From Raillietiella orientalis (lineage: Eukaryota), in contig JAYWIR010000026.1 in the NCBI GenBank assembly GCA_036172245.1, positions 744,001 to 808,000 on the forward strand: DNA of 64,000 nucleotides, in the 5' to 3' direction. Below are positions 19,201-64,000 of this stretch, one piece after another (within the stretch, counting starts at the first letter, position 1; every line of letters begins with the position of its first letter). The notes under the pieces were generated by a model that was given only the letters and a program-made list of their open reading frames with translations, was not told the DNA's origin and did no database searches. The translations under genes and the position numbers were made by a program.

Positions 19201-19684
19201 TATAGCAGGGGCGTTCAGGAGACAAAAAGTTAAAAAACGATTGTGTGTTCATTAGTTAAAAGGGTGTAAGGTATATTTTGTCTTCATAGATATTTTTGTG
19301 TTACTTACGTGAGGATATGTTGAAGCTCATATGAAAACGGAAAAAAATAGCATACTGAGGAGAACATTTTGTTTGCCACAGAAAGGATGAGTTCTTGAAA
19401 GTTGTGAGTTGATGGCTAATAAGACGGAAATATATGTATGGAACTTTGGCTTCAATTATGCTTTGGCTGTTGGTAATCAGTTGGTTTACATACCATTTTG
19501 TTACTGTTTTCTTTTTTTCCTTCGTCTTCTTTCATGCCACCCCCCATTCAGAAACTCATCTCTCTTCCCTAGAAATGGGAAGGAAAAGCAACAGGAAATC
19601 ACGCCTGTCTTGAGCCGTTTGCCTCGGCCCTCTTGAGGGTCCATCGAAGCAGCAGCTGCACGCACCGAGATGCAACGCCGGGGT

Positions 19685-20377
19685 TTCCACCCGGGTACGC
19701 CCGGGGCGTTTACTGAAAAAACTCTACAATAACGTGGTACTAGGCCCCACTAACGGCCACACAACACCGGACCTGCCGGGGCGCCGGGACGCAGCCCGGC
19801 GTGACGCTCCTCGGCAGTGGAGGGGGATGGGGATCAAAACAAAAAGAAAAATAAAGATAAGAAAAAAACAAAAAACAAAAAGAGTTTGGAGGGAGGGGAA
19901 GGGATCACAATCCACTGGGAGGAGGGCCCATCCTTCGCAGGATGCCCTCCAGGTCCATCTTCATGCTTCCCAGATGGGGCCATCTCGCAGCTCTCCGCAT
20001 GAAGCAGACCGCATACGGGATGACATCCCTCACGTTGGCATCCACTCCTTCGTCGCGAATGTCGCTCCAGGCCGCCACGATGCCCCGGATGCAGCAGAGG
20101 GCTGCGGCGGGCTGCAGGGCGTCCCACACGAAGAGGGGCCGAAGAACGTCTCTGGGCGCGCTGCCCATTGGGAGCCCGAGGGTCGTCCCGAACCGTTCCC
20201 ACAGGGGTCGGAGGGCAGCACAGTCAACAAGTAGGTGGGGGAGCGATTCCCGCTCCCCACACCTGGCACACTCAGGCCTTACACTTCCCCGCGTCCAGTG
20301 GAAGCGGCGCGCGTTGCAGGGTAGACCCCAGTGCAACAGCAGCAGCGCCGACTCTTGCCACTTCAGGGGGAGAAGCC
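19685..20377 (-). mobile_element. 5'-truncated L1/Tx1-like LINE with a perfect 14-bp TSD
   Basis: Encodes WQESALLLLHWGLPCNARR...CARCGERESLPHLLVDC. TSD tgcaacgccggggt at 19671-19684 and 20378-20391. Terminal hairpin CCCGGG-CGTA-CCCGGG. Confidence 0.92.
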
Positions 20378-21131
20378 TGCAACGCCGGGGTGGAAGAAGA
20401 GAACGAAGTCCACCTCGTGTTGTTCCGTGGGTGTTCGAACACGCGCGCGCACGCACACGCAAAGTGGACCTGACTTCTGCAAGCAGAATCGCAGCTCCAT
20501 GGTAGCACCTTGGGAGGCTGATCACGGTGGACCGATTTGCCTCATTTGCGATCGTGGAATACAGCGTTCCTTCTGTAAGTCTTCCCGGCCGACCGTGTCC
20601 CATCAGACACGTATCCAAACACCAACCCGCTGCAGCCGGGATCTTTTTTTTTCCTTCGCACGATGCCTTCTTTCCTGCAGAGTTCAGCCGCTCTTTGTCG
20701 AGTAGAAGAGCTGACCATCCCAAGTACCCAAGTACCGCGCCCTCTGTTCCAAGTGCGGATGGTGCACGGAAGATGGGACGGGGTTATCTTCCGAGTCACC
20801 GACACCCTTCGGCCTTCCCGAATCCCGATCAGTTGACTCCGAGATGACCTGCGAGTGCCGGTGGTGAAATAGTTTCAGTGGCAGATGGAAGAAGGTTTTG
20901 GAGTTGGACATCCGGGATCATGACAGGAGCAGACAGGAAAGCTCCTCCCACACGAAGGGCTGGAGAGTTCAAAGCGCATGGCACTGGGTGCCGACATTTT
21001 CTCATGGCTAACAATGTTACCAGCCTCCTCTAATCACAGTTCCGTTCAAAAAGAAACCTTCCAGGCGCAGGTGCTTGGCGACCAAATCAAAGTCCTCAGT
21101 CAACTCTTCTGCATATCTCCAAGGGGTATGT

Positions 21132-37451: not shown

Positions 37452-38165
37452 ATGATGGAGCAGAGGTTGTCAAAGCAGATGGCACATAATGACTGGTCAA
37501 AATACCTAACTTTCATCCAGCCTGCACATCTAGTAGCTGGAATAAGTGGTGGCGTTCTGTCAACACTTTTAGTACATCCTTTAGATCTCGTAAAAATCAG
37601 GTTTGCTGCTGATGAGGGAAACTGCATTGATCGCCCTCACTATAAAGGCTTGTGTCATGCATTCCGTTGCATATATCAAGCAGAAGGAGTTTCTGGTCTA
37701 TACAAAGGTGCTGTGCCAAATATTGTGGGAGCTGGGGCATCGTGGGGTTTATATTTTTTCTTTTATAATGCTATCAAGAGCAGTTACAAAGAACATATGT
37801 GTCAAGTTCAGATGAATCCCATAGAGCATCTTTTAGCTGCAAGTGTGTCAGGTTGTCCACATTGTTATTCACAAATCCAATTTGGGTGGTGAAGACACGA
37901 CTGTGTTTACAGTACGAGGGTAAACTAAAGGAAGCAACAAACCGAGGGATGGTGGATGCTTTCCATCAAATTGTAAAATGGGAAGGAATCATTGGTTTAT
38001 ACAAAGGACTGGTGCCTGGGCTGTTTGGCATATCTCATGGAGCTTTACAATTCATGGCTTACGAAGAACTAAAAAAAGGATATCAGCAATGGACTGCGTC
38101 TTCACCAGATGCTAAACTCAACACCATTTCCTATTTAACATGTGCAGCTTTATCAAAGTTGTTTA
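37452..38165 (+). pseudogene. SLC25A32: Mitochondrial folate/FAD carrier-like gene, intronless, frameshifted at ~37851 and truncated in repeat 3
   Basis: HLVAGISGGVLSTLLVHPLDLVKIRFA, GAGASWGLYFFFYN, TNPIWVVKTRLCLQY, GLYKGLVPGLFGISHGALQFMAYEELK. Similarity stops after ALSKLF. Confidence 0.85.
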
Positions 38166-41100
38166 TCATGCATCACATCGGCGCTTCCCGAATTCATCCT
38201 GCAATCTCAGTCAAGCACACAATGCTCATCATCTTATGAATTCAAGATAATGGAACTCCATTTTCATCCGTTCTCAGCCCCTACCAGCGAATACCCAGCA
38301 TTGCTGCATCAGTCGCGTCCCGAGCCGTGGCTTCGATCAGGGCCCACTTCCCCCATGGCCAGATGCATGAAAATGTTCACGTGTAATCCCCGCTGCTCAC
38401 TTGGTGGGTCGCTCGTAGGGCTCTCCCCCACGGCTGGGCCAGGGGAGCAAATCGGGGTGTGGTGGTGGTGCACGTCTGCAGGGAATCGATGGGACTGCGG
38501 CGACACTCCTGCAGGGGACGCACTTTCACCGCACGGCCGCTGCGCACGTCCCGCGCCGTGGTCGCCGACCCGAGCGGGGCGGAGAGAAGATTCTTCCCGG
38601 AGGACGTTGGTGGGTGGGGAGCACACGGCGACGACGGGAACAACCGGAGTTTTCGAAGCGGAGCGGTCGTGCACCCGTCGGGCACGCGAAAGCAGGACGT
38701 GTCTTCAACAGACAGCTGCAGTGCCGCCAGACAAAGCCTTCGAAAGGAACATTCCACTGCATCGGCGTCAGTTTTTCAAGAAGAGGTCCGATGCATCCTC
38801 TGGAACACCTGAAAGTTCTCCAGTGGCCTTAGGACCTCCATCCTCCTCAGGAATTGATTCAGCATCCGTTGCATTTAACAGCCTGCATTCTACTGCTGCA
38901 AATGAAAGTCCCGTTTAGCAATTGGGTTGCCTTCCGGGCGGCTGCCTTGTTTTGAGCACTCTCACAAATCGGAGATGCCAGCGACTCACAGCTGAATGGC
39001 TCTTTTGTACAAGTACTACTCTTCCAGTTCCGTGAAACTTCTGTTTAGGAAGATCAAACAACAGCTTGGAAATTGAAATAAACGCAGGAGATCGACGTTG
39101 TTGCATATCTTTCAAATTCTTCCTGATCTCGCGAGATCTTCCTTGATCAAGTGGTACCTTATTACCAAATGGGGAGTCTACTTGAACTTTAGTAATGAAT
39201 TTAGATAAATCGGCACTTTGCTCGCTTGGACGAACCTAGGAACAAATAATGATATATTGAATTATGGGTCCGGTCTAGGTGATTCTAGGAACGATCGAGG
39301 CTTACCCTTTCTTTCGTGTACTATAACATCCCTTTTTGCCTCTGGGAGCACTTTCATGGACCTCTTCATCAGAAAGAAACCTGATTTCTATTTTTTTGAA
39401 ACAAAGTATGCAAAGTTTTGTATAAAAGCATTTAATGGGATTTGCCACATCCTTTTTTTTTCTTTAAGGAAGGGACGGAAGTGATCTGCGTGGAATACGT
39501 GTGGAATCTCCCTCAAGTCGTTTCCCCCTTTTTGACCCCGATCATCTGACAGAGCCAAAAAGAAATTTCTACTCCGGCTTCCACGAATTCTTCATGAGTG
39601 TTGCCTTCCGTCCCACAGTTTTCACCTGGAGATCCAAGTCACAGGAATTCTCAGGTTCCACAAACTTATCGATCCCTTCCCATTCCAGAAGATGGGAGGC
39701 GAGCATCTTCATTTCATGTCTCGAGGTGCGTTTCAGATAAGCTTCCCTTCTTTCTTCCCCGGTTGCTCACCGGCTCGATGGTGCAGAGCTGTAATGGCAT
39801 GCGTTCATGCCGACAAGGGAGAGTGGAAAAGTGGTCCGAACGTGGCTATTCAACCAGGTACCCACAGTGGTACGAATGATGCATTCATTGATCTTTTTTC
39901 AGGGCGCCTATGCGCTTCGAAAGCGTCCACAAAGACTAGCATTTCATGAGAAACTCTTGAATAACATAATTTAAAAACATAACTAGTCTGCCCTCTTTCA
40001 TGATGAAGAGAGCGAACTATCTCAGAGTGCACTTAAAGAGAAAGCAGGAAAAGGGGGAGATATACAACAGCTCAACCGTGGAGCCGCGTCTTGGGGTCCC
40101 CTGGGAGGGGACACGTAGAAACGGCGGCGACGAACAGAGCCCCGCCACTAGTGCTGCATGGAAAGATCTGAAGGCTTAGAAGAGGAGCCCTGCTCGGAGA
40201 GTTAGAGGTCACAGAGCATGCTGCATACGACCGAAGTGTCCGTGGAGCGTTGGGAAAGCGGATGAGAAGAGGACAAACGTGGAGGGCAAACGTGGAGAGG
40301 GGAGGTGAGCTTCCCAACTTCCTCCCTCGAAGCGACCAGCGCAAAGAGCCAGGAGAAGAGGGAAGTCCTTCCACGATTCTCCTTTCTTCCAGGAACACTT
40401 AAAGTGGTTTTCATAGAGAAGGGAGTCTCTAATACCTCCAGCAGCAGCAGCACAAATAATCTTTTCTTCTCCATGTATCCCTCAGAGAGGAGAAGGATGG
40501 ATGGAGCGCTGTTTGCCTTTATCTTTTTTGAATTAAATGACGTCCACGTTCGGAGTCTAGGCTGAACTAGGAGCGTTATGAAAAATGGGAACACTGTGGA
40601 ACCTGATAGACAAAAGCAGAAACGAATTTGTACTGCATCCGGTTCAATCTAGACCAAAATAGTTTCTTTCCGGATAGTGTCGTGACTTAAGAGGATCATA
40701 TCAGTTCTTTGCCTCCAACCAGTGAACTTAACATGCCACGACGAGCTGCTCCTACCACGCGTGTATTACCGCACGGAGCTAAACGTAGACAACATAAAGA
40801 GGAGAAAGTTCCAAAGACGGCAGCTGAACGTATGCGGGAGATGAGAGCAAATTGAAAATGCACATGTGAACAAGATGAAGAATACCATGAGGATGCTCAG
40901 ACACAGACGTCCAAGGGATCATAGAGAACACAAATAGCTCAACCAGGAGTACAAGATGCGGATGTGTGACCGTCTTCATTGACTGTTCTTGTGACAAATA
41001 ATCCGTTTGGACACGTTTGCAGCGTTTGTAATGGACTACGGTTTAAGAATGATCTCAGAACACGAAAGCCTAGTCCATCTAGCTGTGTTGCGTGTAGAAT

Positions 41101-42899: not shown

Positions 42900-43900
42900 T
42901 GCCCCGATAACGCCTGGGCGCTTATTATAACAATCATAAGCATACATGTGTAGGGCCATTGGCCCTACATTGTCCGAAACTGTTCCAAACCTGTTGAGTA
43001 GCCGGAACGCAGGATGCCGACGTTCGCCTTGGCAGCGAAGGGAGAAGAGAAAATAAAAATAAAATAAAAATCAATAACGAAAAAAAAAACCTGGGAGGCA
43101 CGGGAAGGGATCGTTTTTCGCTGGAGGGCGTCTTCCACATCCTCTCCAGGATGCCGGTAAGTTCCATCCGAGTATGCACCAGGTGGGTTAATCTAACTAC
43201 CGTCCTCAGGAAGTGCAGGGCGCAGCAGAGGGAGTCCCTATCGCGCCGCTCTTCTCTCGCGTAGCCCCGTGCCGCCACAATCCCACGTAGGCAACAAAAA
43301 GCTGCTGGGGATGTGGCAGGCAAAAGGGTGTTACTCACAAAGAGGCACTTGAACACGTCCCTGGGATCGCCCGTCGGTGCACCAAGGATCGCTGCGAGAC
43401 GAAACCACAGGGGCGGAGGGCAGGAAGAAGAAGAAGGTGCGGGAGGGATTTTCGTTCCCCACACCTGCAGCAGCTGGGGTACACAGCCAAGTGGGAACCA
43501 GTGGGAACGGCGGGCGTTGCACGGGAGTCCCCAGTGCAACAGCAATAGTGCCGGTTCCTGCCACTTCAAGGTGCAGTTGTTCTTCAGCGCTGGGGGTCCC
43601 TCGAGGTCTTTCTGTGAAATTCCAAGCAGCTCACCCCAGCGCAACAGTTGTTTCGGTGGGGCACTTGGGGTAGCAGCGTTTGTGAGCTGGACCATGGTCC
43701 TGCTCCGGTAAGAACAGGAGGCTTTGCTATTTCTGCAATGGAGATTCCAGTGCAACCAGCGCAGACACCTGGTTTTTGGGAGAACTGCCTCCCCGAACTG
43801 TTTAAGGTGAGGGGCGATGGATTCGCCCCTCACCTTAAACTTTTGTTGGACTGCATTGCCCCGTAGAACTTGTGAAAGAGACTTTCTTCGGTGTTCCGAC
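42900..43900 (-). mobile_element. Degenerate 5'-truncated L1/Tx1-like LINE
   Basis: QLTNAATPSAPP..LLRWGELLGI..KWQEPALLLLHWGLPCNARR; 3' UTR ends AATAAGCGCCCAGGCGTTATCGGGG. Confidence 0.85.
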
Positions 43901-50330: not shown

Positions 50331-52309
50331 CGTAATACGCCGCTCGGGGCAACATCTCACCCACCGAAAATAGGCTCAAAGAACTCGCAGGTTTCACTGT
50401 GCTCTTTCCACAGTATGCACTCATAAGAGGGCAACCTCGCAAATGAAGCGCTGCGATCACGCATATGTAGTGCCTTTTGCACACATGCATCATATACATC
50501 TTACACATACATCTTACACTAGCCGTGCACACAGAACATATTGTGCACATGTGTACTGCAGAACCCATGAGTATACCATACAGAATGGGCGCCCCGGTTA
50601 TCCAGCACTCTTTATTTCTGTTGCCCATGGGGAGCAAGGGAGACATCCAAGAGGCAGTAGGAGAAAAACGTGACGACAAACTCGGAAACGTCGACCTCAC
50701 TTTCTGCAAACGATCCCTCTTTGGCCATCAAACACGAATCGTGCACTGCAAATCACACGACGATCCCCATGCTTTATCCCCATCGGGACCAGAAGCTCTT
50801 AACAACTAGTGTTCTAGCAAAGGCGAAAATCAACAGGCATATGCATAGGGATTAACTTGAAATACCTACTTCTTTAGCAAGTCCCTATATTTAGCATCAA
50901 CAGCAACCTCTTGTCTTCGCACAGACCCACGTATGAAGCTCTTGCATGTTCTTCCTATGAGAATTGGGAAACAGGAAAATAAGACGAACAGCATTCCTTG
51001 AATTGCAGTTGCAAGGAGGGAAAGTTGGTGAGACGCATCCGACCCTTCGTTGGCAGGGAATTATGCACTTCCGCAGTCAAATATTATCGAAATCTACGGA
51101 TTCGAACAACGGGCCGTACTACGACGACCAGGACTCTGCACGGTCCTCCACGAAGACGCATACAATTCGAAACAATTTGCCAGGAAAGGCAATGGGCGGA
51201 TAAATTCTCGACGAGGACGGTCCGATTCTGAGCGAGCGAACCTCCTTCGTCACCATGGTCACCATCAGTTGCAGAAAACGCCCACCACGTGATCAGTCGA
51301 AACATCCACACGCAAAACGGCATGAAGACCGTTTCGGAACTCCAGGAACGAACCCAACTCTGACCCGCTGCCTCCAGCCTCCGTGAAACCAGGATGTGAA
51401 GGAGCGAGTTCTCACTCTTGGGAACGGGAACGTCAGGTTCCCTATTCTTGTACCCATGTTGAAACTCGGAATCCTCAGCCACACTTCAACCATCGGTCAT
51501 CCCATCCATCTTTGCAGTTACCGGCGAGAATGCGGAGATTTCTCAAACATTGGTTTTGGACCACGAGCGCTCGTTTTCGCTCCTTGGTGAACTGCTCATG
51601 CCAGACCGACTCCAGGAGTCCATTCACAAATTGAAAGCACTCAATTTCTGAAAGCTTCCCCTCGCAATTTGCATTTTCCAACAGACAAGAAAGACGCAGC
51701 AAATTCTCGTTTTTTTAAAATAAAAACCAACATTTTAGTTGCCTCCGAAAATCAGCTTTTCATCTCATCCATGGGACTCCAGGGTTCCCGCCTTTCCAGT
51801 CCGTCAACCCATCGAAACACGCATTGCAACCGCCCTTTCCAAGTCAGCACCGAGTGCACTCGCTCGTACGATCGTTCCTCTTCAGTTCTCTGAAGAGGAA
51901 CGATCTCGTGGAAACGAAACACATCTATGCAGCTAGGGAAGAAGATTTAGAGAGCGAGCACTGTCTGTCGACTCCCATGAAGCCAAATCTTTGCCGAGTG
52001 TCGGGCTAGTCCACGGTCCGCAAATCAAGCTGCAAGACCACAAAGACGAATGATCCACCGTGTGCGGTAGGAGACTTTGTTCCCCGAATGGTACGCGCGT
52101 GCCTCACAGTTTGCGCGTGAGCACTGCATCTCTGCAGATGAGCTCCGCGAACTGCACGCCGCTCCGTACGGAGAAGCACAAAATCTCCTCGTCTGCTATG
52201 CCCATCTTACGGATGGCATTACGGCATTTCCGCGTGGCTAGCTGTGAATGCAAATTCCCAACCTTATGAAGGAGGGCAGGGTTGTATCCCTACTTCATGT
52301 AGGCCTGTA

Positions 52310-54141
52310 CTTCTGCGGCCATGTCCGGACGACCCGTCGCAGCCTATGCTGATGAGCTGCTTCTCCTTTTACCCATGATCACCCCGTCGTCCAGTCTGGA
52401 GGATTTCTTCGAACTGATTCTCCGGGGAGCGGGCATGAGCGTTAACCGGGGCAGGAGCATGGTGGTTCCTGTTGGTGCGTCGTGTAAGGGGCAGTCGGAA
52501 TGGATCCGCCTGGGGATCCCAACCGCTCCAACCATCCATTATCTGGGCGTTCCTCTGGGGAACATCAGCCCAGTGGAAGTGTGGTCGGACTGCCTTCGGA
52601 AGGCAATGAATGCTCTGAGCCCGTTCCAGCATGGCAGGTTCCTCCTGTCATGGCGGGCCGCGATATGGAACACCTTCGTTGCCCCCCTCTCGCGCCCCCT
52701 GCTTTTTGTTTGTCCGACCTCCTACTCGGCCAATCTCAAGGCGCACAGCCTGTTGAGGAACGCTCTGTGGGGACCTGCGAGGTCCAGGATCCGCCTGAAA
52801 GACTTGGCGGCTCCGCGTCGGGATGCTGGCTTAGGCATCCTGACGCTGGAGAGAATCGAGCTGCAGGTGCAGCTTCGAATGTTGGCCCTGTGCGCCAACC
52901 TTTGGTCCACTCCGTGGTGCGCTCCCGCGCGCCTGCTTCTGCGGCGCTGCACAGGCAGCGATGGACTTCTGTCGCTGCGGCGGGACAAGGAGCGCGCCAC
53001 GAGAAGCTTCGGTTTCCCCTTAAAACCGCTCTACCGACTCCTGGAAGCCCAGGAATGGATCTCCTGCCGCCCAACGAGCTTTAAATCCTGGCGGCAGGAA
53101 CCCTTGCATGGCTGGGCAAAGCACCAGGATGTTTCCCTCCTGGAACTCCGTTGCGCTCACCTCTCCCCGTACTGCACAGTGGATCAGGTGTGCAACAGCC
53201 AGGAGAAGTGGACACACCTGGCCGTCACGCCACTCGGCGACGTGCTGTCAGCCCACAGGGCAAGTGATGACAGCTGCCTACCGCCGAGGTGGGAGGTCGC
53301 CTGTATCATCGCAGGAGCAACACGACCCGTAGGCGGCTAGAGGACTTGCGAGCTGGCAGACGCCCCCACGCCTCGCCACATCCCCAAGGGACTCCGTCGG
53401 TGGAGTGAACACTTGAGTGTGCCCCCCGAAGAACTTGTGGTCCCTCCCTCCTGTTTGAACACTTCCGTGTTCCCCTTTTCTTGGAAGCAGGACGTCATCA
53501 TGCTGGTGCATTGGGGTTTTCACTCCAGCCAGCGGACGAACCGCGTTTCCGGGGGAGTCGTCTCCCCAAACTGTAAGCGGTGCGGGGAAGTGGAAACGCT
53601 CCCGCCTCTGCTCTTCGTCTGCGGTGTCCTCGAAGGACTGTGGCGGAGGCTGGCTCCAGCTCTCCTGCACCAGGGGGACACCGCGAGAGACTTGATGCAC
53701 CGCTTCTCCACGCCAGGCGGCCTGTCCTTAGGTGCTGTCCTCGCAACGGTCTGTTGCACCCGCGCCATCGACAACGCCCACCGAGAGCTGGAGAAGTTGG
53801 CCATTCTTCGTCAGCCAACCGGATTAGCCAGCGCAAGCATGTCGTCGGCTGCCGAGTGGGCCCACCTACCAGAGAGCGTGAGGAGAGAGATCGCCGGCAT
53901 CCATCGCCGGTATTGAAAGGAAGGAACGGTCTCACCAAAGACCCCTGTCCCCTGCCCACCAAATTTTTATTTTTATTTTTTATAGTAGTCTATTTGTGGT
54001 CCCCTCCCTCCCGTTCCGGACTTTCGCCATACCGACCTGCGTGTCGGGGATCCCACCCCCTTCGTATGTTGTTTTCCCCTTTGTCCAGGAACTCTGTTCC
54101 CGGATAGTTTTTAATAAACTCCCCGGCGCACCCGGGTGATA
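52310..54141 (+). mobile_element. LINE copy E: RT C-half, zinc finger and 3' UTR; its 3' end abuts copy D antisense
   Basis: AYADE, YLGVPLG, RRDAGLGI, CKRCGEVETLPPLLFVC. Internal TAG at 53338. Ends AATAAACTCCCCGGCGCACCCGGGTGATA. Confidence 0.92.
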
Positions 54142-56422
54142 ATCAAACGCCCCCTGCGATCCTCTCGATCTCCTGGTCGTTCTCCGCGGTGATCGCGTGG
54201 ATGTCCTGCAGGAGCGCCAGGTCGAATTCACGCAGGATGGCGGCCATGTCACGTGTGTTGCCGTCGTCGCGCAGCCCGTTGACGTTCCAACAGGCCACAC
54301 GCAATCGACGGCGACAGGCGAGCCCAGGTGTTATTCCTGGGAAAGTTGCAATGGGGCTCCGGCCACCTGGTCGGGCGGGACGGATGGAGGAACGGGATCA
54401 CCGCGCACCGGTTCTCCCTCCTCCATGGGGGCCGATTCCTCGGCGGACCGCAACGGTTGAAGGGGGCGGGTTTCACGCACCTGCTCCCCCTCTTCCATGG
54501 GGGCCGATTCGTCGGCTGCGTTGGACGGCAGGGAGGAGCGGTTGTCAGCTGTCTGCTCCCCCTCCTCCATGGCTATCTCCTGGACAGGTTCCACCGTTGG
54601 CAGGGGGCGGCAATCACTCACCTTATCCCCCTCCTCCATGGGGGTCTCCAGTTGCTCGGTAGCGGAGGGTGGGAAAATCCCTCCATCCGTTCCCACGCTG
54701 CCGGCTTCCCCCTCGGATGCCGGTGCGTCCCCCTCCTTCTTTGTCGGGATGCGCCTCTTGGGATTCTTGGACTTTCGTCCAGTCTTCTTCGGAGGCGCCT
54801 CCGCGGAGGAGGACGCACTTCCGGCATCCGGTTCGTGGTCACCTGTCCGAGGTGCCTTGCTCGCGGCCGGCCTTCGCAAGGCCTTTCGCGCGCCGTTCTC
54901 ACGCTCCGCGAGTTCGGCCGCGAGCTCTTCCGCCGCCTGCTGGAAGGCGGAGTCCTCGATTGCGGCGAGCGCGTCGCTCGGCTCCTCCTCTGTTTGCACA
55001 GAGGAGGAGCCGAGGTCGCTACTTCGTCGACAACGAGGCGGGGGATATCCCCCCCGGTGGCGGTCTCGGGGACCTCCACACGCTCCAAGGCGACCGAACA
55101 TTCACGGAGCAACGCGCGGCGTTGTCTCCTATTTAAAGTTGATGTCGCGGGTTCCGCTGTCGGTTTTTCGGATTTTTTTTCTTTTCGGCTTCGCTGTCCG
55201 CCAGCCTTCCTTGTCACCAGCGTTGTCTGGAGTTTTCTCGACCGCCGTTTGCTAGGAGCATTCAGACTATGGCTTTTTGCTTGGCCTTTCCTTTGCTTCT
55301 GTGGGCTTGCTTGTTTTCTCCAAGCGTTTCCCCTTACCTTTTTTCAAGGCAGAGGGCGCTGCAGGTTCCCGCTTTAGGCACATTTTCCGGAGGTGGCCCT
55401 TCTCCCCGCAGTGGAAGCACTGGATGTGAGGGCACCGTATTTTCAGGTGCCCTGTCGCATCACAGTGCCCACAGTACTTGGGGTTGCCCACGTACCAGAT
55501 GTCGACCGTCCCGTTGTCGACTACTAGTTTGTGGGGTAGCCCACCGTTTTCGTGTACGGTCACTTGCGCTGCAGCCATGGCACTGAACAGTTTTCTATAT
55601 GTTAGGAAGACGTTAGGCTTGGTACACAGAGCGTGAACCGTACCATATTTCGTCAGCTCTTTCTGCACACCAGCTTTGCTCATACTGAGAGTTACACCGA
55701 TGAGATGCGCTACAACTGAGCGATCCTCTGTTACCGGGAAGACCTATCGGCCTTCCAGTGTGATGGGGGTGTTCAGCAGGCGCTGAGCCAGGCTTGCATC
55801 TTTGCAAGTAAGCTACACCCGCTGACCCCCACTCATGACGGAAAGGCCTTCCAGGTCTTCCTCGTTCACATTCAACCGCTGTAACTCTCTCTGAAAGTTA
55901 CTAGCGGTGTTCCCCACAAATACAATTGTCTACCTTATAGATCAAGGGTGGCTTATTTCCTTGATCCCGGTAGGCACGTTGTTCTGCCATGGCTTCAGGG
56001 GATGGCGCTGCAGTCACAGCGCACCACGTCTTCGTTGATGGAGAAGACGCATCCACGGGTGCGATTGTCCCCTTTTTCATAGGGGCGGTTGCGCCTTTTT
56101 CCAGTGTGGCGTTTGTACCCTTTTTCCAGGAGGCGGATGCACCCTTTGGCACAAGGGCAGTTGCCTCCTTTTCCAAGGAGGCGGCAGCCCTCGTTTCCAA
56201 CGGGGCGGTTGCCCTTTTTTTCAAGGGAGCAATTGCCCTCGCCTCCGTGGGGACGATTGCCCCCACCTCAATGGATTGGGGAGAGGAACAAGCCTCTCCC
56301 CCTACGGTGTTCATCGCGGTATCCTCAGGCATTTCTGCCATTGGACACCGCAGATGCTCCACACTGACGAAAAAGAACGCGTCACAACAGGCGCAGCGGA
56401 GCGCGGAAAAAACACGTTCGCA
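54142..56422 (-). mobile_element. LINE copy D: 5' UTR, disrupted ORF1 and start of the endonuclease
   Basis: ORF1 is homologous to 61397-63046. ORF2 start RRRLRVACWNVNGL..DLALLQDIH is cut off at ~54142 by copy E. Confidence 0.92.
54331..56341 (-). pseudogene. ORF1 (gag-like, 2x CCHC) of copy D with stops and frameshifts
   Basis: YCGHCDATGHLKIRCPHIQCFHCGEKGHLRKMC; stops at ~55901 and ~55267. Confidence 0.88.
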
Positions 56423-56692
56423 CGCCAAGTTGCTAGCAGGGCTATGGGCTTCGCGTCTGGGGCAGGTGGCAGAATCCATAATTAGCCCGGAGCAGAATTA
56501 TGCTGTTCCCGGGCGGAGTAAGGATGCCAACCTCTTCTTCGCAAGCACATGGGTGCACCTGCAGAGGAGAGAGAAGTAAGGGAAAGGAAAAATCGGCAAC
56601 CCCACTTTGGGGCCGCCAGCCGAGTTGGGAAGGGATCCTTGGGCGGGGAAGGGGGCCTTAGCGCTCGCAGTCGATCTCCATAAGACGTTCGA
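56423..56692 (+). mobile_element. LINE copy A, RT fragment 1 (host of D and B)
   Basis: AKLLAGLWASRLGQVAESIISPEQNYAVPGRS...GEGALALAVDLHKTFD. Confidence 0.9.
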
Positions 56693-56910
56693 TTTTCACC
56701 CGGATTTCGCCGGGTTGTTTATTGTACAATAAACTTTTACAAAGACGTGCGGGGGCTGGACCATTGCTCCAGCCACGCACGAAGAAACACAGAGCCTGCC
56801 GGGTCACCGGTTCGCAGACCGGTGCGGTCCACCACGGCAGCAGGGGAAAGGGGGAAAAACAAAAAACAAAACAAAAAAGAAAAGAAAAGTTGGGAGGGTA
56901 AGGGAAGGGA

Positions 56911-59900
56911 TCACAGTTGCTGGTGGGGCCGTTGCATCCTTTGCAGGATGCCGGCAAGCTCCTTCTGTATTCCTGGATCCAGGTGAGGCCATCGGGACGC
57001 CCTCCTCAGGTACTGGGAGGCTGGCTGGATGGCACCCTGGTCGCGTTGCCCTCCCTAGGCCTTGCCCCAAGCGGTGACGATCCCGCGTAGGCAGCACAAA
57101 GCTGCTAACGAGGCCGCTGGCCGAAGGGCGTCGGCAACGAAGAGGGCTTTCAGTGCGTCCCTGGGGTTGCCGCAGGGGATTCCGATGGCCGCGGCAAAGC
57201 GAAACCAAAGGGGCCGAAGGGCAACACAATCCACTAGCAGGTGGGGGAGGGACTCCCGTTCCCCACACCTGACGCAATTGGGGTCCACCGCTCCCCAGGT
57301 CCAGTGGTGTCGGCGGGCATTGCAGAGGAGTCCCCAGTGCTGCAACAGGAGAGCCGACTCCTGCCATTTTAAGGGGAGGGCGGAAGTGTTCATGAGCACC
57401 GGGGGTCACTTCAGATGTTCAATGGGAACATCGAGCAGCGCGCCACAGCGCAGAAGTCCATTGGGAGGCGTACTCGGGGTCGCAGCGTCTGTTAACTGGC
57501 CCGTCTTCCACTCTCCTATCTTCTTCTCCTTTCTGGAGATTGTTACTGTAACCACCCACTTCGCCGCAACATCGCTGTCCAGATCTTCCATCAGGGAGGA
57601 CAGCGCAGCAGCGAGGGCGGTTCTTCCTGCCCACGCTCTCTTCTTTGGATCCTCCAGGATCTCGCGGAGCGTGCAACTTCTGTAACCCCCAAACAGGAAC
57701 CTTCGTTCCTGTTGGGAGCGTTGCATGCCGAACTGTCCCCACGTTCGAACGGTTTCCTGCAACCAGGCACTACCGTTCAAAGGGCGACAGGTGAGCAATC
57801 CTTGATTTTTCCTTGCCAGCGCAGCCACCCTCCGTAGCTGAAGCCCACATCGGTTGATGCGGCTTCGATGGAGTGCAAGAAACGACGTCAGTTTCGTCTT
57901 GCCGGTGGCTTGCTGGAGAAGGAGACGTGCAGGGACGCACCAACAGGTGCACCACAACTCTGGAACGAGTGCCGACAATCGGAACTGGAGCTGAAGCTCC
58001 AGCCGCTCCAGCGTCAGGAGGCCCAGACCACCATCCCGACGAGGAGCGCACAAGTCCTTTAAGCGGACTCGGGCCCTCCCGTTGCCCCAAAGGGCGATAC
58101 GGAGGAGGTCCTTTGTCCGCTTTTTAATTCTCTCTGTGGGGGGGCAAACAAAAAGCAGGGGGCGGAGGAGAGGAGCCGCGAACGTGTTCCAAACCGCGGC
58201 CCGTTCAGGCAGGAAAAACCTGCCGCCTCGGAACGAGCCGATCGCCGTCTCTACTTTTTGGAGGCAGCCGGACCACGCTTCCGCAGGGGAGTAGTCCCCC
58301 AACGGCACACCAAGGTACTTGAAGTACCTCACCGTGGGGATCCCCAAACGGACCCAGTCCTGCTGCCCTGCCCACGCCGCACCAACTGGCATCACGGACG
58401 ATTTCGCCCTGTTCACCGTAAGTCCGGTTCCCCGATGCAGCAGGTCGAAGAACTCCTCGACCGCCGCAGCCGGGGTGGACATAGGGAGCAGCAGCAGAAG
58501 GTCGTCCGCGTATGCTGAAACGGCCGGCGTACCGGCACAGTCGTGCGGCAGGTGCGCCAGAGTTCCCCTGTACGCTCTCAGTACCAACTCAAAGTAGGTA
58601 CTGAAGAGCAAGGGGCTCAGGCTGTCTCCCTGCCGGATCCCACGCCGCACCGGCACGCCGTGCACGGTCTGCCCGCTGAAAGTAACATTGATGAGCGCGT
58701 CGCGCCAGCAGGAGCGCAGATAGGCCACTAATGAGGCCGGGAAGCCCAAGCGTTCAGAAGCTCCAGAAGGAGATTCTGGTCGACGCAATCGAATGCTTTT
58801 CGCAAGTCGATTGCGACCGCAAGGGCTCCCTCCCCCACCCGACCATCCAATCCCTTGCCGGCGCACGCACCGGATTTCCGGCTGCGCACCAAGCTCCTTT
58901 CATGTTGGAGCTCTAGCCAGGTGGAATCGTGGAACAGGTTCGCCTCCATGCTTCGCCCGGGAACAGCATATGTCTGTTCCGGGCTGATGAAGATGTTGGC
59001 AACCCGTCCCAGACGCTCTGCCCACATCTTGGCTATCAACTTGGCGCCAGCAGCCGCAAGCCTAGGTGGCAAGTCTCCTGCCGCATCGCAGGCAAGGAGA
59101 AGTTGATCAGCGGCTGGTCCACGGGTGAACTGGCGGACGCCAGTACCCCTAGTGTCCAGCCGAGAGGACTGCAGAGATGGGGCGAGCTACTCGGCATCCA
59201 GCCGGATGACCTGAAGTGGCCCCCGGTATTAATTGGATCTAGGATCCTCCCCCTGATGTGGCAGGAGTCGGCGCTTCTGTTGTTGCATTGGGGTCTATCC
59301 TGCAACGCACGCCGCCACCACTGGACCAGGGGTCGAGTAGATCCTACCTGCATCAGGTGTGGGGAACGGGAAACCCTCCCTCACCTCCTTGTTGATTGTG
59401 CTGCCCTCCGACCCCTGTGGGAACGTCTTCGTGCCTCCCTACGGATCCAGGACGGCAGCCAGCCCAGAGACGTTTTTCGGCTTCTGTTCGTGCATGATGC
59501 CCTGCGTCCAGCCGCTGCCCTGGCTGCACTTTGCTGCGTACGCGGGATTGTGACGTTCTGGAGCGAAGTAAGAAGACCGAATCACGACAGGGATGCCGTC
59601 GTACTTGCAGTCCGCTACCTGCGGATTGTGACCAGATGGCCCCACCTGGGAATTATACGGACGGACCTCGAGGGCATCCTGCGAAGGATGGACCCTCCTC
59701 CCAGTAGTCAGTGATCCCTCCCCAACCCTCCCAAATCTTTTTGTTTTTATGTTTTATTTTTCTTTTTGTTTTTTCCCCCACCCCCTTCCGCTGCCGAGGA
59801 GAGTCGCGCCGGTCTGCGTACCGGCGACCCGGCAGGGTCAGTTGAGTTGGCCGTAGTGGGGCCTCGTACCACGAACCAAAGAGAATTTTAAATAAACGCC

Positions 59901-61382
59901 CCGGCGTGACCGGGTGGCAACTATCAACTTGGCGTCCGCATTCACTATTGTGATGGGACGCCAGTTGTTCATGCTCCTCAGATCTCCTCCCTTAGGGAGG
60001 AGCCGCACCTTTGCCGAACGAAACGAGGCGGGAACGACACCTGTTTCGCGTATCAGCATGGTGAGTTGCTGTACCAGGGGGGTAAGCTCAGCCGCGAAAG
60101 TTTGATAAAACTCCGCGGGCAGGCCGTCCTCCCCTGGAGCCTTTCGCCTCTTGAGCTTTCCGATGGCCGAGAGGATCTCGTCGATCGTGAAAGGCTCGTC
60201 GAGGGTCTTTCTCTGCTCCTCCCCGATCGCTGGAGCGCCTTCCGGAAGCAGGAGTCGTGAGACGTTCCTCTCCGGAGGTGCCCTGGCATACAGGGAGGAG
60301 TAGTAACTCCGCAGCAGGCCGCGGATTTGGTCAGGTGCCGAGTGCTCCTGGCCCTCATCGTCCAGTAAGCTGGCCGATCCGGACTGCCAGGCTTGCCTCT
60401 CGGCTCCCGCTTTGTATTCCGCCAGCCTGCGGATGTCGGGGGTCCTAACGTAACGACGGGCCTGCAGGTAGGCTCGTTCGTTACGGACCCCGGTCCCAAA
60501 ACCCGTAGGTAGGCGGTGCAGAGGGAACTGGTCGCAGAACTCCTGGACCGACCGCTTGAAGCGGTCCCAATCCTGGAGTGTCCGCAGCCTGAAGCTCCGT
60601 ATGAACGTGCGGAGATGTTCCGCCGCATCCGGGAGCTTCAGCCAGTCCCCTGGGAGACGCCACGCTGACGAGGAGGGGCCCCTGTCGCGCGGATGGATCT
60701 CGAGGACTAGCGGGCGATGGTCGGACAGCTCGCACGGTAACTTGCCGCGCCTGCCCACGCGAGGGCACAGGTGCTCGTCAAGAAACACGTGGTCAATGCT
60801 GTCTTCCATCCCCGGTGCACTGGCCAACATATTACAGGTGTGCACCGCCATGCACACCTCGTTGACCAGGTCACGCTCGGGATTCTGCCCATCAGGTTTC
60901 AGGCGAACGTTGAAATCGCCTGCAACCAGATGGGCATTCCGCACGCCTGCTTCGGTCATCCAGTCTCGCCGGAGGGCAAGGAAAAACTCTTTCCTCGTCC
61001 TCCTGTTCATCAGGTCCTTGCCGCTCGGTGCGTACACGTTCGTGACGATCAGATCGATCGAGTCGGACCACCTGAGAGTCAGCTGGCCGACACGACCGTG
61101 ATCGTCGAACCGCACGCCCCGAGCCGCGGCCTCGACGGCTGGCCGAAGCAGGTAGGCGACACCGCAACTTTTTACTCTCCCACACCTGTATCATAGCCGC
61201 CCTCCGGAGATCCGTTCGATCTCTTGCGCTTGTTCTGCAGAGATCACGTGGATCTCCTGCAGCAGCGCAAGGTCGTAGGACTCCAGAAGGGCGGCCATGT
61301 CTCGTCTCCTGCCGGCGTCTGTCATGCCGTTCACGTTCCAAACGGCGATGCGCAGACGACGGCGGGAGGAGATTCCCGGCAT
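56911..61382 (-). pseudogene. ORF2 of copy B: APE endonuclease - reverse transcriptase - zinc finger, disrupted
   Basis: WNVNG, LQE, NVYAP, GDFN, IDH, SDH; KAPGEDGLPAEFY, WRPITIVNADAKL, DLRKAFD, GIRQGDSLSPLLF, YADD, YLG. In-frame stops at 61191 and 57406, a frameshift at ~58750, a stop at 57055, and insertion of copy C. Confidence 0.95.
59047..59920 (+). mobile_element. LINE copy C: 874-bp 5'-truncated copy inserted antisense in the RT of copy B
   Basis: Perfect 14-bp TSD ctatcaacttggcg at 59033-59046 and 59921-59934. Open ORF2 C-terminus to 59714. Ends AATAAACGCCCCGGCGTGACCGGGTGGCAA. Confidence 0.96.
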
Positions 61383-61396
61383 TACTGCTGGGAAGA

Positions 61397-63046
61397 TCAA
61401 GGTGTGGGGGAGCCCTCCTCTTGCGAGGCGGGCGGGATGTCCATGGGGGTTTCGGCCTTCTCAGGCACCTGAGGCACCTGTTCAGCCTCCACCCCCTCCA
61501 TCCCCTCCGTGTCCGCGCGTGGGAGTCTCTCGGGCGACGGGTATCGAGAGTTTCCCACGCTCATGGCACCCTCGCTTGCGGAAGCCATCTCTTCCCCTTC
61601 GACGGGGGAGACGAGCTTCCTTGGCTTTGTGGACTTACGTCCAGCCTTCTTGCGCGGTGCCGTGGAAACGGAGGCTGCGCTTCCGGCCTCCACCTCGGGG
61701 TCGGAAGTGGGGGACTCCTGAGGGGAGGCCGGACGCCTTACGGCCTTCTTGCCAGCCTTGGAGGGTTCTGGCTGCAAGGAGGCTGCCAGCTCCTCCGCGG
61801 CTCGCGCGAAGGCTACGTCATCGATGTTGGTGTCGATGACGGACGCCGCCGCCGGCTCGCTCCCCTCGCTGTTGACAGAGTCAACAGAGGGGTGGTCGAC
61901 GGTAGCGGCAAGTTCTTTTTCGTAGCGGTCGGGAATACGCTCGACGACAACGCTGCATTCTTGAATTTGCTCGCTTGCCTGCTGTTTTTTCTGGCGGTAC
62001 GCGAGCTTTTTCTCCATCCTGCTCTCTTTCTTTGATTTTTTGGCCGTAGCCACCTGCCACCCAGGCTCCTGGCTTGTTCCCTCGACTTGTTCGGCGCTGT
62101 TCGCCGGGGTCTCGGGTGCGGCGTGGGCCTTGGGCGCGGGTGGCACAGCCTTCGCGGCAGCTTTCGCCGCCAGCCTTTTCTGCAGAAGCCGATCACGTTT
62201 TTTAAGGTTTCTCTTGGAAACCACCCGCACTGCTGCTTTAGGGCACACCTCCTTCGTGTGTCCCATGGTTCCGCATACTTGGCACTGCACATGGGGACAC
62301 CTTTTTTTGACGTGGCCCGACGTATTGCAGAAGCCACAGTATTTCGGCTTCCCTACATACCAGAGGTCGACGGTTTCGCCCTCGACCACCAGTTTGTGGG
62401 GAAGAGTGCAGCCCTCCCGAACGGTCACGCGCGCAGCAGTGAGGCCGTGTTGCAGCCCCGTGTAGTCCTCGAAAGGACTTACTTTCGTCCACTGCGCGTG
62501 GACCGTTCCGAACTGTTCCAAAGCGGCGCGAACCTGTTCTTTGCGCATTCGCGCGGTTACGCCTAACAGGTGGATCACCATGCTGCGGTCCGCCGTAGTG
62601 GGGAGGAGCCTGCGCGTCCCCATCACAACGGGGGTTTTAAGCAGTCGTTGGGCCAGCTCTGCATGTCTGCAGATGACCTCAACGTACTGACCCCCGCTGC
62701 GGATGGTCATAGCGCTAAGCTCCTCCTCTTTCACATCGAGAGCGCGCATGCCCTTCGAGAAGGCGCGCGCGCTCTCTAAAGAATATAAATTGCCTACCTT
62801 GTAGAACAATGAGGGGTTGTACCCCTCCTCCACATAGGCCGACAATTCCGCCGCGGCTGCAGGCGATGGCGCCGACACAACGGCGCTCCACGCCCGCGCT
62901 GCAGCGGGGATCGATTGTGTGGGGGCGGATGCCCCCACCTCCATCGCCTCCGGGGGCGACGTTGCCGCCGCCCCCTGGCTCTCCATCGCCTCTGGGGGCG
63001 GCGTTGCCGCTGCCCCCTGGCCATCCCTGGTGTTCGCGTCAGGCAT
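61397..63046 (-). CDS. ORF1 of copy B, intact 549 aa nucleic-acid-binding protein (RRM-like region plus 2 CCHC knuckles)
   Basis: First ATG at 63046. YCGFCNTSGHVKKRCPHVQCQVCGTMGHTKEVC. The ORF2 ATG follows 14 nt after the stop. Confidence 0.9.
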   Translation of the reverse strand: MPDANTRDGQGAAATPPPEAMESQGAAATSPPEAMEVGASAPTQSIPAAARAWSAVVSAPSPAAAAELSAYVEEGYNPSLFYKVGNLYSLESARAFSKGMRALDVKEEELSAMTIRSGGQYVEVICRHAELAQRLLKTPVVMGTRRLLPTTADRSMVIHLLGVTARMRKEQVRAALEQFGTVHAQWTKVSPFEDYTGLQHGLTAARVTVREGCTLPHKLVVEGETVDLWYVGKPKYCGFCNTSGHVKKRCPHVQCQVCGTMGHTKEVCPKAAVRVVSKRNLKKRDRLLQKRLAAKAAAKAVPPAPKAHAAPETPANSAEQVEGTSQEPGWQVATAKKSKKESRMEKKLAYRQKKQQASEQIQECSVVVERIPDRYEKELAATVDHPSVDSVNSEGSEPAAASVIDTNIDDVAFARAAEELAASLQPEPSKAGKKAVRRPASPQESPTSDPEVEAGSAASVSTAPRKKAGRKSTKPRKLVSPVEGEEMASASEGAMSVGNSRYPSPERLPRADTEGMEGVEAEQVPQVPEKAETPMDIPPASQEEGSPTP

Positions 63047-63140
63047 CGCTGCCTGATCGACCACCGAACCACACGACGCTTGCACTGGGGAAGACTTCCT
63101 GGCACGAGGAGCACCGAGAAAACACGTCCACCCTGGAGCA

Positions 63141-64000
63141 CACAAGGCGTTCGACTGTGTTCACCAAGAACTCCTCTCAAAGCTGCAGGGTTGCATGGTC
63201 TTCCCACCCTCCTTGATTTCCTACTTGCGCTCTTCCTGGTGAAACGCGATTATTACTATCTCTTTCAGTGGACAAAAGGTGTATGGCGTGTGGGTGCCGC
63301 GGGGCATAAGGCGGGGAGACAGACTCAGTCCCCTGCTCTTTATCACCTACTTTGAGTTGGTTCTGAGAGCGTATAGGATTACTTTGGCCCCCTTGCCGAG
63401 GTCGCGCCCGGCACGCCCTTCGTAGCAGCGTATGCCGACGATCTTCTCTTCTTGTTGCCGATGTCCACCCCGGCGAAGGCGGTCGGGGATTTCTTCGATC
63501 TGCTTAGCCGCGGGACCGGACTACAGGTTTACAGGGCGGAATCGTCGGTTGTTCCAAGAGGTGCGGCGTGGGCAGGGCAGCAGGACTGGGTACGTTTGGA
63601 GATCTCCACAGCCAGGTGCTTGAAGTGCCTTGGTGTGCGGTTGGGGGACTATTCCCCTGCGGAAGCGTGGTCTAGCTGCCTCCAAAAAGTCGAGACGACG
63701 ATCGGCCCGTTCTTGGAAGGAAAGTTTCACTTGCCTGAACGGGCCGCGCTTTGGAACGCTTTCGCAGCTTCCATCCTCCGCCCCTTGCATTTTGTTTGCC
63801 CCGCCCCCGTGAAATACCAGGAGCGAAGGAAGGACCTCCTTTGCATTGCCCCTTGGGGCAAGGGGAGGCCCCGAGTCCCTCTGAAGGACTTGTGCGCTCC
63901 GCGTCGGGACGGCGGTCTTGGCCTCCTGACGCAGCAGCGCGTGGAGAAACAGCTGCGATGGCGCACCCTCGCCCTCGCAGCGAAGCTATGGTGCAACCCT
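63141..64000 (+). mobile_element. LINE copy A, RT fragment 2 (continuation after copy B)
   Basis: KAFDCVHQELL..FPPSLISYLRSSW, AAYADDL, DLCAPRRDGGLGLLT. Continues fragment 1 exactly across the TSD. Confidence 0.92.

Follow-up and report, generated by a model that had tools for sequence, protein, structure and literature searches.

A LINE family of Raillietiella orientalis with a preferred insertion site in the reverse transcriptase codons of its sister families

The stretch of Raillietiella orientalis DNA analyzed here (64,000 nt, referred to as the window) carries at 52.3-64 kb a four-level nest of retrotransposons that lack long terminal repeats (non-LTR elements), in which all four nestings are antisense. 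Two of its members, designated C and D, lie at the same nucleotide of the reverse transcriptase (RT) codons for AKLI or AKLL in two different hosts, B and A. Both belong to F1, a LINE (long interspersed nuclear element) family that is typically 5.9 kb long, inserts antisense at one nucleotide of the AKLI/AKLL codons of sister families, and leaves a target-site duplication of 13-14 bp. It is likely that C and D arose from separate, independent insertions by this site-specific family, whose target is a ~14-nt RT stretch of its sisters. This judgment is a joint one that also takes in the target-primed mechanism, a target choice set by the protein, and the evolutionary steps proposed below.

Family F1 and its site at AKLI/AKLL

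The original prediction, made from the window alone, placed C and D at one nucleotide in two diverged hosts, and both junctions are present. C (59047-59920, plus strand) is an 874-nt, 5′-truncated F1 copy that lies antisense at the AKLI codons of host B and is 96-98% identical to full-length F1. It is bounded by the 14-nt duplication ctatcaacttggcg, whose 5′ copy (59033-59046, plus strand) and 3′ copy (59921-59934, plus strand) match perfectly, and its 3′ terminus (59891-59920, plus strand) is of the type common to all families described below: AATAAA, then an inverted repeat (CCCGG..CCGGG) and four last bases of which the final two are AA, without a poly(A) tail. D (54143-56422, minus strand) is the 5′ 2.3 kb of an F1 copy, with the 5′ untranslated region (UTR), the first open reading frame (ORF1) with CCHC knuckles, and the start of the endonuclease, and it is cut at the F2 site. 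Its 5′ end at 56422 (minus strand) adjoins cgccaagttgctag, which is the F1 target (AKLL codons) in host A (56423-56436, plus strand). D shows this one junction and no readable duplication pair because its 3′ part and the 5′ half of A are absent from the window. The hosts are indeed diverged, A and B being 74.8% identical over 115 nt at the F1 site. The inserts had also been described as different. They are different in extent, as C is 5′ truncated and D retains its 5′ UTR, but they are not different kinds of element: when 9 kb was fetched behind 20 C-type 3′ ends, 10 loci contained one element whose 5′ end was of the D type and whose 3′ end was of the C type, with the same duplication on both sides.

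Other copies follow the same pattern. Among the 30 copies nearest to C, 28 had a readable 3′ flank, and 24 of these were at AKLI/AKLL, two were in tandem, placed head-to-tail with a second F1 copy on its duplication, and two were elsewhere. Likewise, all 16 of the distinct D-type 5′ ends listed were preceded by the F1 duplication (17 rows, of which L031 is the window itself). D is 81-88% identical to F1 copies over its 5′ 2.3 kb, and F1 copies are 83-94% identical among themselves. The exact 16-nt F1-type 3′ end was found at 141 places in the 210-Mb assembly, to which all genome-wide counts refer, and 41 of them continue into an AKLI-type target. The hosts at these 41 junctions, about four of which duplicate other loci, were F0/7 (18), F6/9 (8), F3 (4), old or unassigned copies (8), tandem F1 (2), and one F1-like copy. 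Mapping breakpoints beyond the window did reveal a sequence-specific pile-up at the exact nucleotide, far in excess of chance, although not a general hotspot as had been proposed; the site is targeted by a single family, F1. The second peak expected, at the KAFD codons, also exists and is made by other families (F0/F7). Breaks in host copies were found at 7 of 871 control positions, compared to KAFD with 11 of 123 and the F3 site with 11 of 89, counts in which the loci were partly picked via these families and the "other" column may include some breaks twice.

Comparison of inserts with their hosts argues against one ancestral insertion having been copied by duplication or gene conversion. The host flanks of the 24 on-site copies differed by a distance of 0.08 within a host family and 0.23 between families, whereas the inserts differed by 0.045 in same-family and different-family hosts alike. 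Insert distance is thus unlinked to the distance between host flanks (Mantel rho 0.096, p 0.21, n=24), as expected of independent events. An extreme example is the pair L012 and L017, with inserts 0.5% apart in hosts 28% apart. The hosts come from at least four families, the F1 truncation points vary among copies, and old hosts, only 75-78% like any reference, carry F1 at the identical base. For these reasons, the copying of a few host-plus-insert composites by duplication, gene conversion, or co-retrotransposition was rejected as a general cause and is given very little chance; it explains only a few duplicates among near-identical loci (L026/L030, L184/L195/L199, and L185/L186). Loci that are nearly identical and lie on separate contigs or as inverted pairs (L006-L030, L184/L195/L199, L185/L186, and L163/L164) are segmental duplicates or haplotigs. 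There is next to no chance that the junctions are assembly chimeras between repeats. Many nests do lie on small contigs, and the host family differs between the left and the right flank in three of 10 full-length F1 copies (L117, L123, and L126) and in one or more F0 copies (L217, with C151:41207). However, misjoins create no duplications, fixed antisense orientation, or family-specific sites, and two junction types, an F1-type 5′ junction at the F1 site and an F8-type junction, were present in short-read contigs of run X1, which may not be independent of the assembly. The mismatched flanks mean that recombination between copies at separate loci, or misassembly, also shapes the nests. Transduction of a 3′ flank was not supported as their source, as the foreign flank continues for 600-1200 nt and never switches back.

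The rest of the nest is made up of other families. Host A, of the F6/F9 group, is represented by an RT piece reaching from the F1 site to the F0 site (56423-56692, plus strand; 91-92% identical to F6-type copies) and by its continuation past B up to the window edge (63141-64000, plus strand; 85-87%). B (56693-63140, minus strand) is a full-length F0 copy with ORF1 and an ORF2 encoding an apurinic/apyrimidinic endonuclease (APE) and RT; it lies antisense in A at KAFD and is interrupted by C. The KAFD duplication copy at its 3′ end (56679-56692, plus strand) differs at 2 of 14 bases from that at its 5′ end (63141-63154, plus strand). E (52334-54142, plus strand) is a 5′-truncated F2 copy, 90% identical to F2 copies, that occupies the F2 site of D (endonuclease residue ~63) in antisense orientation. 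Its left junction does not return to D. At 52001-52334 the 5′ end of E meets non-LINE DNA without a duplication and without the remainder of D or A, so the nest has lost its left part by deletion or exchange. A short off-site F5 copy (19684-20380, minus strand) is not within any LINE, and an old 3′ fragment of the same LINE lineage (42985-43700, minus strand) is ~66% identical to the nearest references. Elsewhere, positions 1-458 hold three copies, 99% identical, of a ~149-bp tandem repeat, and 37769-38239 (plus strand) is an unbroken reading-frame piece of a mitochondrial folate carrier (SLC25A32-like), possibly a processed pseudogene. The named matches to a window gene piece were from animals only.

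Sister families, their sites, and the sparing of own copies

F1 is one member of a larger community. Clustering of 184 AATAAA-type 3′ ends by 3′ UTR gave ten families with at least four ends each; cluster 10 was an ORF1 repeat rather than a 3′ end and was dropped, and singleton clusters were kept outside the matrix. Insertion sites were mapped on a real ORF2 of 1189 amino acids, with single real copies, some of them chimeric or interrupted, as family references. The sites lie at ORF2 residues 54 (F8), 63 (F2), 156 (F4, at GDFN), 269 (F3), 296 (F5, F6, and F12), 487 (F1), and 568 (F0 and F7, at KAFD), and in ORF1 (F9), which makes at least six family-specific sites besides those at AKLI/AKLL and KAFD. 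Insertion is antisense in most families and sense in F4 and F9. Of the 175 ends (from 184) left after removal of duplicates, most were on site: 31 plus 5 tandem of 42 for F0, 26 plus 2 tandem of 30 for F1, 8 plus 4 tandem of 12 for F3, 8 plus 1 tandem of 9 for F4, 5 of 6 for F5, 6 of 6 for F6, 4 of 5 for F7, and 4 of 4 each for F8 and F9. F2 was relaxed (15 of 36). Exact F0/F7 junctions numbered 77 genome-wide. At least 10 further end types were seen among singleton clusters 14-30, with other sites (ORF2 residues 352, 769, and 1047, and ORF1), and the community therefore exceeds the ten families counted.

Nesting between families is reciprocal. F1 was found 14 times in F0/7 and F0 twice in F1; F0 was found 11 times in F6/9 and F9 four times in F0/7. 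With F6 and F9 taken as one group, there are also longer cycles (for example, F5-F3-F6/9-F0-F5). The nests concentrate at contig ends (C11, C18, C13, and C35), on small contigs, and in internal blocks (C5 at 2.3-2.5 and 3.5-3.6 Mb; C1 at 8.0 Mb), and these nest-rich regions are candidates for centromeric or other heterochromatic DNA.

Own copies are largely spared. The host could be assigned at ≥85% for 77 of 106 on-site insertions, and it belonged to the inserter's own group in one (F7 in F0). Every family's own copy deviates from the target that the family prefers. A good example is F1, which reads CGATCA at its own site compared to CTATCA, CTAGCA, and CCAGCA in its targets; CGAT and CTAT are synonymous in the Ile codon. 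Genome-wide, CGAT-type sites were filled and empty in a ratio of 0:101, compared to 35:262 for sister-type sites (p=2.6e-5, or 1.3e-4 after removal of four likely duplicates). Among the 101 empty CGAT sites, 63 end in the F5/F6-type base rather than that of F1. This means that avoidance tracks sequence and not family alone, and it makes a loss of self inverted repeats a less plausible cause. Self-avoidance is strong for F1 and partial for F0/F7.

The KAFD site offers a possible case of escape from a rival. The KAFD Phe codon is TTT in all four F1 references (L113, L123, L127, and L130). The F0 flanks start with TCGAA in 31 of 42 cases, so the TCGA core preferred by F0 is lost in F1. Breaks at KAFD were found in 1 of 20 F1 copies compared to 4 of 14 F6/9 copies, a difference that is not significant.

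Element ends, proteins, and the choice of target

In keeping with the terminus of C, the AATAAA of the ends examined lay 23-25 nt from the junction in 144 of 157 and the terminus was AA in 152 of 157. Thus, the poly(A) or A-rich 3′ tail of the L1/Tx1 group is missing, 152 of 157 ends having two A's only, and the targets contain no T-tract. The terminal hairpin was self-standing in the minimum-free-energy fold of four of seven families (z -0.2 to -3.2). Duplications of 9-16 nt are present on full-length copies as well as on truncated ones. The first base of the target goes with protein kinship, being C in F1, F5, F6, and F9, T in F0, F3, and F7, and A in F2, F4, and F8, and it is variable in the 3′ junctions of F2. 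Off-site copies retain the first 4-5 target bases, on the primer side only. In full-length F0 copies, the apparent duplication at the 5′ end had G at position 12 in six of seven pairs with A in the 3′ copy (window B, L138, L213, L228, L231, and L233; the exception, L209, has T), only 8 of 39 F0 regions having a 5′ end at the expected distance. This suggests that the last 1-3 duplication bases derive from a target-like element leader. Among the 30 closest F0 copies, four of five off-site copies were truncated within 1.7 kb compared to none of 25 on-site or tandem copies, which could be due to 5′ joining or to selection. A conserved GGACGTGT(T/C)TT motif, probably an internal promoter or initiator element, was found 4-16 nt from the 5′ end in all families.

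Target-primed reverse transcription is established for LINEs, and the duplications, 5′ truncation, and tandem re-insertion fit it. In the mechanism we propose, the ORF2 protein would nick one strand at the sequence its family prefers, as in ordinary target-primed reverse transcription. The AATAAA spacing, the AA ends, and the lack of a T-tract suggest a polyadenylated RNA whose tail forms 24-25 nt past AATAAA, with complementary DNA (cDNA) beginning two A's into that tail without pairing; the 3′ stem-loop, and not base pairing to the target, would set where the start lies. The second strand would be nicked ~14 nt away, and the 5′ end may be joined via 1-4 target-like leader bases.

Exo_endo_phos and RVT_1 matches above the Pfam cut-off define ORF2 as an N-terminal APE endonuclease followed by RT, with C-terminal zf-RVT matches under the curated cut-off (E 0.006 and 0.015). 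The ORF1 of D has a zf-CCHC match above the cut-off; that of B has no Pfam match, and two Cys/His clusters were recognized in it by eye. A separate ORF1 with CCHC knuckles is typical of Tx1-type elements. The catalytic motifs of the endonuclease are intact, and its model matched the L1 endonuclease with Z 19.4 and a root mean square deviation of 3.0 over 208 aligned residues, tied with APE1 and ExoIII. The nearest database protein was 33% identical over half of the query. In a quick RT tree, the nine families formed one long-branched clade (support 100) with no firm place among 50 L1/Tx1-like matches, which included no named Tx1L, Keno, or Mutsu reference. On structure, the families belong to the L1/Tx1 group: they have its target-site duplications and 5′ truncation, and, as in the Tx1 clade, an animal host and a preference for target sequence. 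Most probably it is the protein that sets the choice of target, through the endonuclease and perhaps other parts of ORF2p too; in favor of this are the kinship pattern of the first target base, the first target bases retained at off-site copies, and the uniform positions of AATAAA and AA. The loops after NVYAP and before CGVA are the most variable between families and are candidates for setting the specificity.

Several observations weigh against the explanation as a whole. Between GDFN and IDH the endonuclease is shorter by ~20 residues, and it has no FTW/YTW strand; the spacing is 38-40 in all six families studied compared to 57-61 in seven and 46-49 in two of 13 relatives (four unparsed). 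Judged by alignment, the structural model being moderately confident in this region, the betaB6-betaB5 hairpin of the Tx1L/L1 type seems to be absent. The L1 version of the hairpin reaches into the minor groove; when it is lost, endonuclease activity is crippled and specificity is altered (from part of PMC1950540). The F6 and F9 endonucleases are 90% identical and yet their sites are unrelated (one reference copy each). Specificity is also leaky, with the AKLI pattern at only 41 of 141 exact 3′ ends, although many of the others are older families with the same end. In the first 30 of these ends, an unbiased set, ~14 were F1-like, with ~8 on site and 5-6 off site, which makes the preference strong but leaky. 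Two off-site F1 targets begin with CGA (L163 and L172), so CGA is not forbidden, and one of the 41 F1 junctions lies in a host 85.5% like F1. KAFD sites of the F0/F7 type were filled in 8 of 249 cases compared to 29 of 317 (counted by eye; p=0.0055), which amounts to only ~3-fold avoidance. The samples were by design rich in young F0, F1, and F2 copies and in LINE-dense regions. Finally, there are the mismatched flanks of full-length F1 copies described above.

Some of these points would also suit two other explanations. One is an RNA guide, in which the tail of a read-through transcript pairs with nicked homologous DNA and the site is inherited from the donor flank. The apparent lack of the usual DNA-reading hairpin, the unrelated sites of F6 and F9, and the conservation of off-site targets on the primer side alone are in its favor, and L1 priming is biased by primer-template pairing (part of PMC3649969). 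However, the variants CTAT, CTAG, CCAG, and CAAT were not inherited along the insert tree (12 changes compared to 13.5 when shuffled, with 41 of 200 shuffles as low), and sister inserts carry different variants, in a tree that is poorly resolved and has one long branch. A heritable target variant, tested at 31 of the 41 junction loci, was accordingly not supported. The fixed AATAAA spacing (24-25 nt) and terminal AA suggest that the RNA stops before the target, and the first target base is variable in F2. We consider an RNA guide quite improbable. The other explanation, which seems unlikely but less easily set aside, is that self-avoidance is a by-product, either because antisense self-inserts form inverted repeats that are deleted or unassembled or because young families are little exposed to themselves. 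Insertion is antisense in most families, avoidance by F0/F7 is weak, and the occupancy counts pool hosts regardless of age, all of which this would accommodate. On the other hand, the 63 unfilled CGAT sites of the F5/F6 type form no self inverted repeat with F1, F1 copies are exposed, as they are hosts of F0, F2, and tandem F1, and the sense-inserting F4 and F9 also had no own-family host (0 of 10 assigned). Choice by the protein is favored over a read-through guide because the first base follows protein kinship and the variants are not inherited on the insert tree.

In evolutionary terms, sister LINEs would offer many copies in which landing does no harm, and a family would retain more intact masters by leaving its own copies alone, hence the divergence of sites family by family. 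We tentatively suggest, as a possibility that falls short of being probable, that this is an arms race within one LINE lineage. About ten families would attack conserved sibling motifs (GDFN, AKLI, KAFD, and others) with nucleotide precision, codon changes at the sites would let families escape their own nuclease and partly those of rivals, and a cyclic predator network would keep the families coexisting and build the nests, driven by an endonuclease able to read DNA although the usual hairpin is missing.

Comparison with known systems

Self-nesting LINE clusters, formed by insertion into the own family, are known for Zepp/ZeppL of green algae and Cnl1 of Cryptococcus. The present nests resemble these in being dense clusters of LINEs that landed in LINE sequence. 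They differ in that internal own-family insertion is rare (1 of 77) and self-directed insertion occurs only as a tandem on the duplication. ZeppL forms centromere clusters (part of 10.1101/2025.03.28.645958).

Targeting of mobile elements is already known in the Tx1 clade. Tx1L of Xenopus inserts into Tx1D, crocodilian Tx1-Mar into Mariner-N4_AMi, Tx1-8_Crp and Tx1-4_AMi into LTR retrotransposons, and Tx1-9_AMi into Harbinger (parts of PMC4494074 and PMC6719617). Like these, the present families are animal APE-RT non-LTR elements with family-specific targets, for which another mobile element is a safe landing site. As far as those sources extend, the Tx1 targets are DNA transposons, LTR elements, RNA genes, and microsatellites, whereas here they are the ORFs of sister families, attacked reciprocally by ~ten families with different sites that largely spare their own copies; in addition, the Tx1L-type endonuclease hairpin was not seen. 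What appears to be new is this reciprocal, self-sparing network of sister LINEs, of which no report was found in the literature searched, partly in excerpt (Repbase Reports, most subscription journals, and supplements were outside its scope). Competition between transposon families has mostly been argued from theory or niche separation, and here it leaves a countable record of the inserter, the host, the base, and whether own sequence was spared. The families also provide a natural series of related APE-type enzymes (47-90% identical) with ~eight different known targets, which seem to lack the hairpin regarded as the guide of L1 and Tx1L. With such a series, a long-standing question, how the target specificity of LINEs changes, becomes directly testable, which is relevant to the engineering of site-specific LINE insertion.

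Finally, R1/R2 and TRAS/SART are site-specific non-LTR elements of ribosomal DNA and telomeres (part of PMC8869645), and R2 primes without pairing (part of PMC3649969). The families described here share with them nucleotide-precise sites, the use of one multicopy target by several families at different positions, and priming without a T-tract. The difference is that here the target array is no host gene but the element lineage itself, so each insertion destroys a competitor and at the same time adds target sites.

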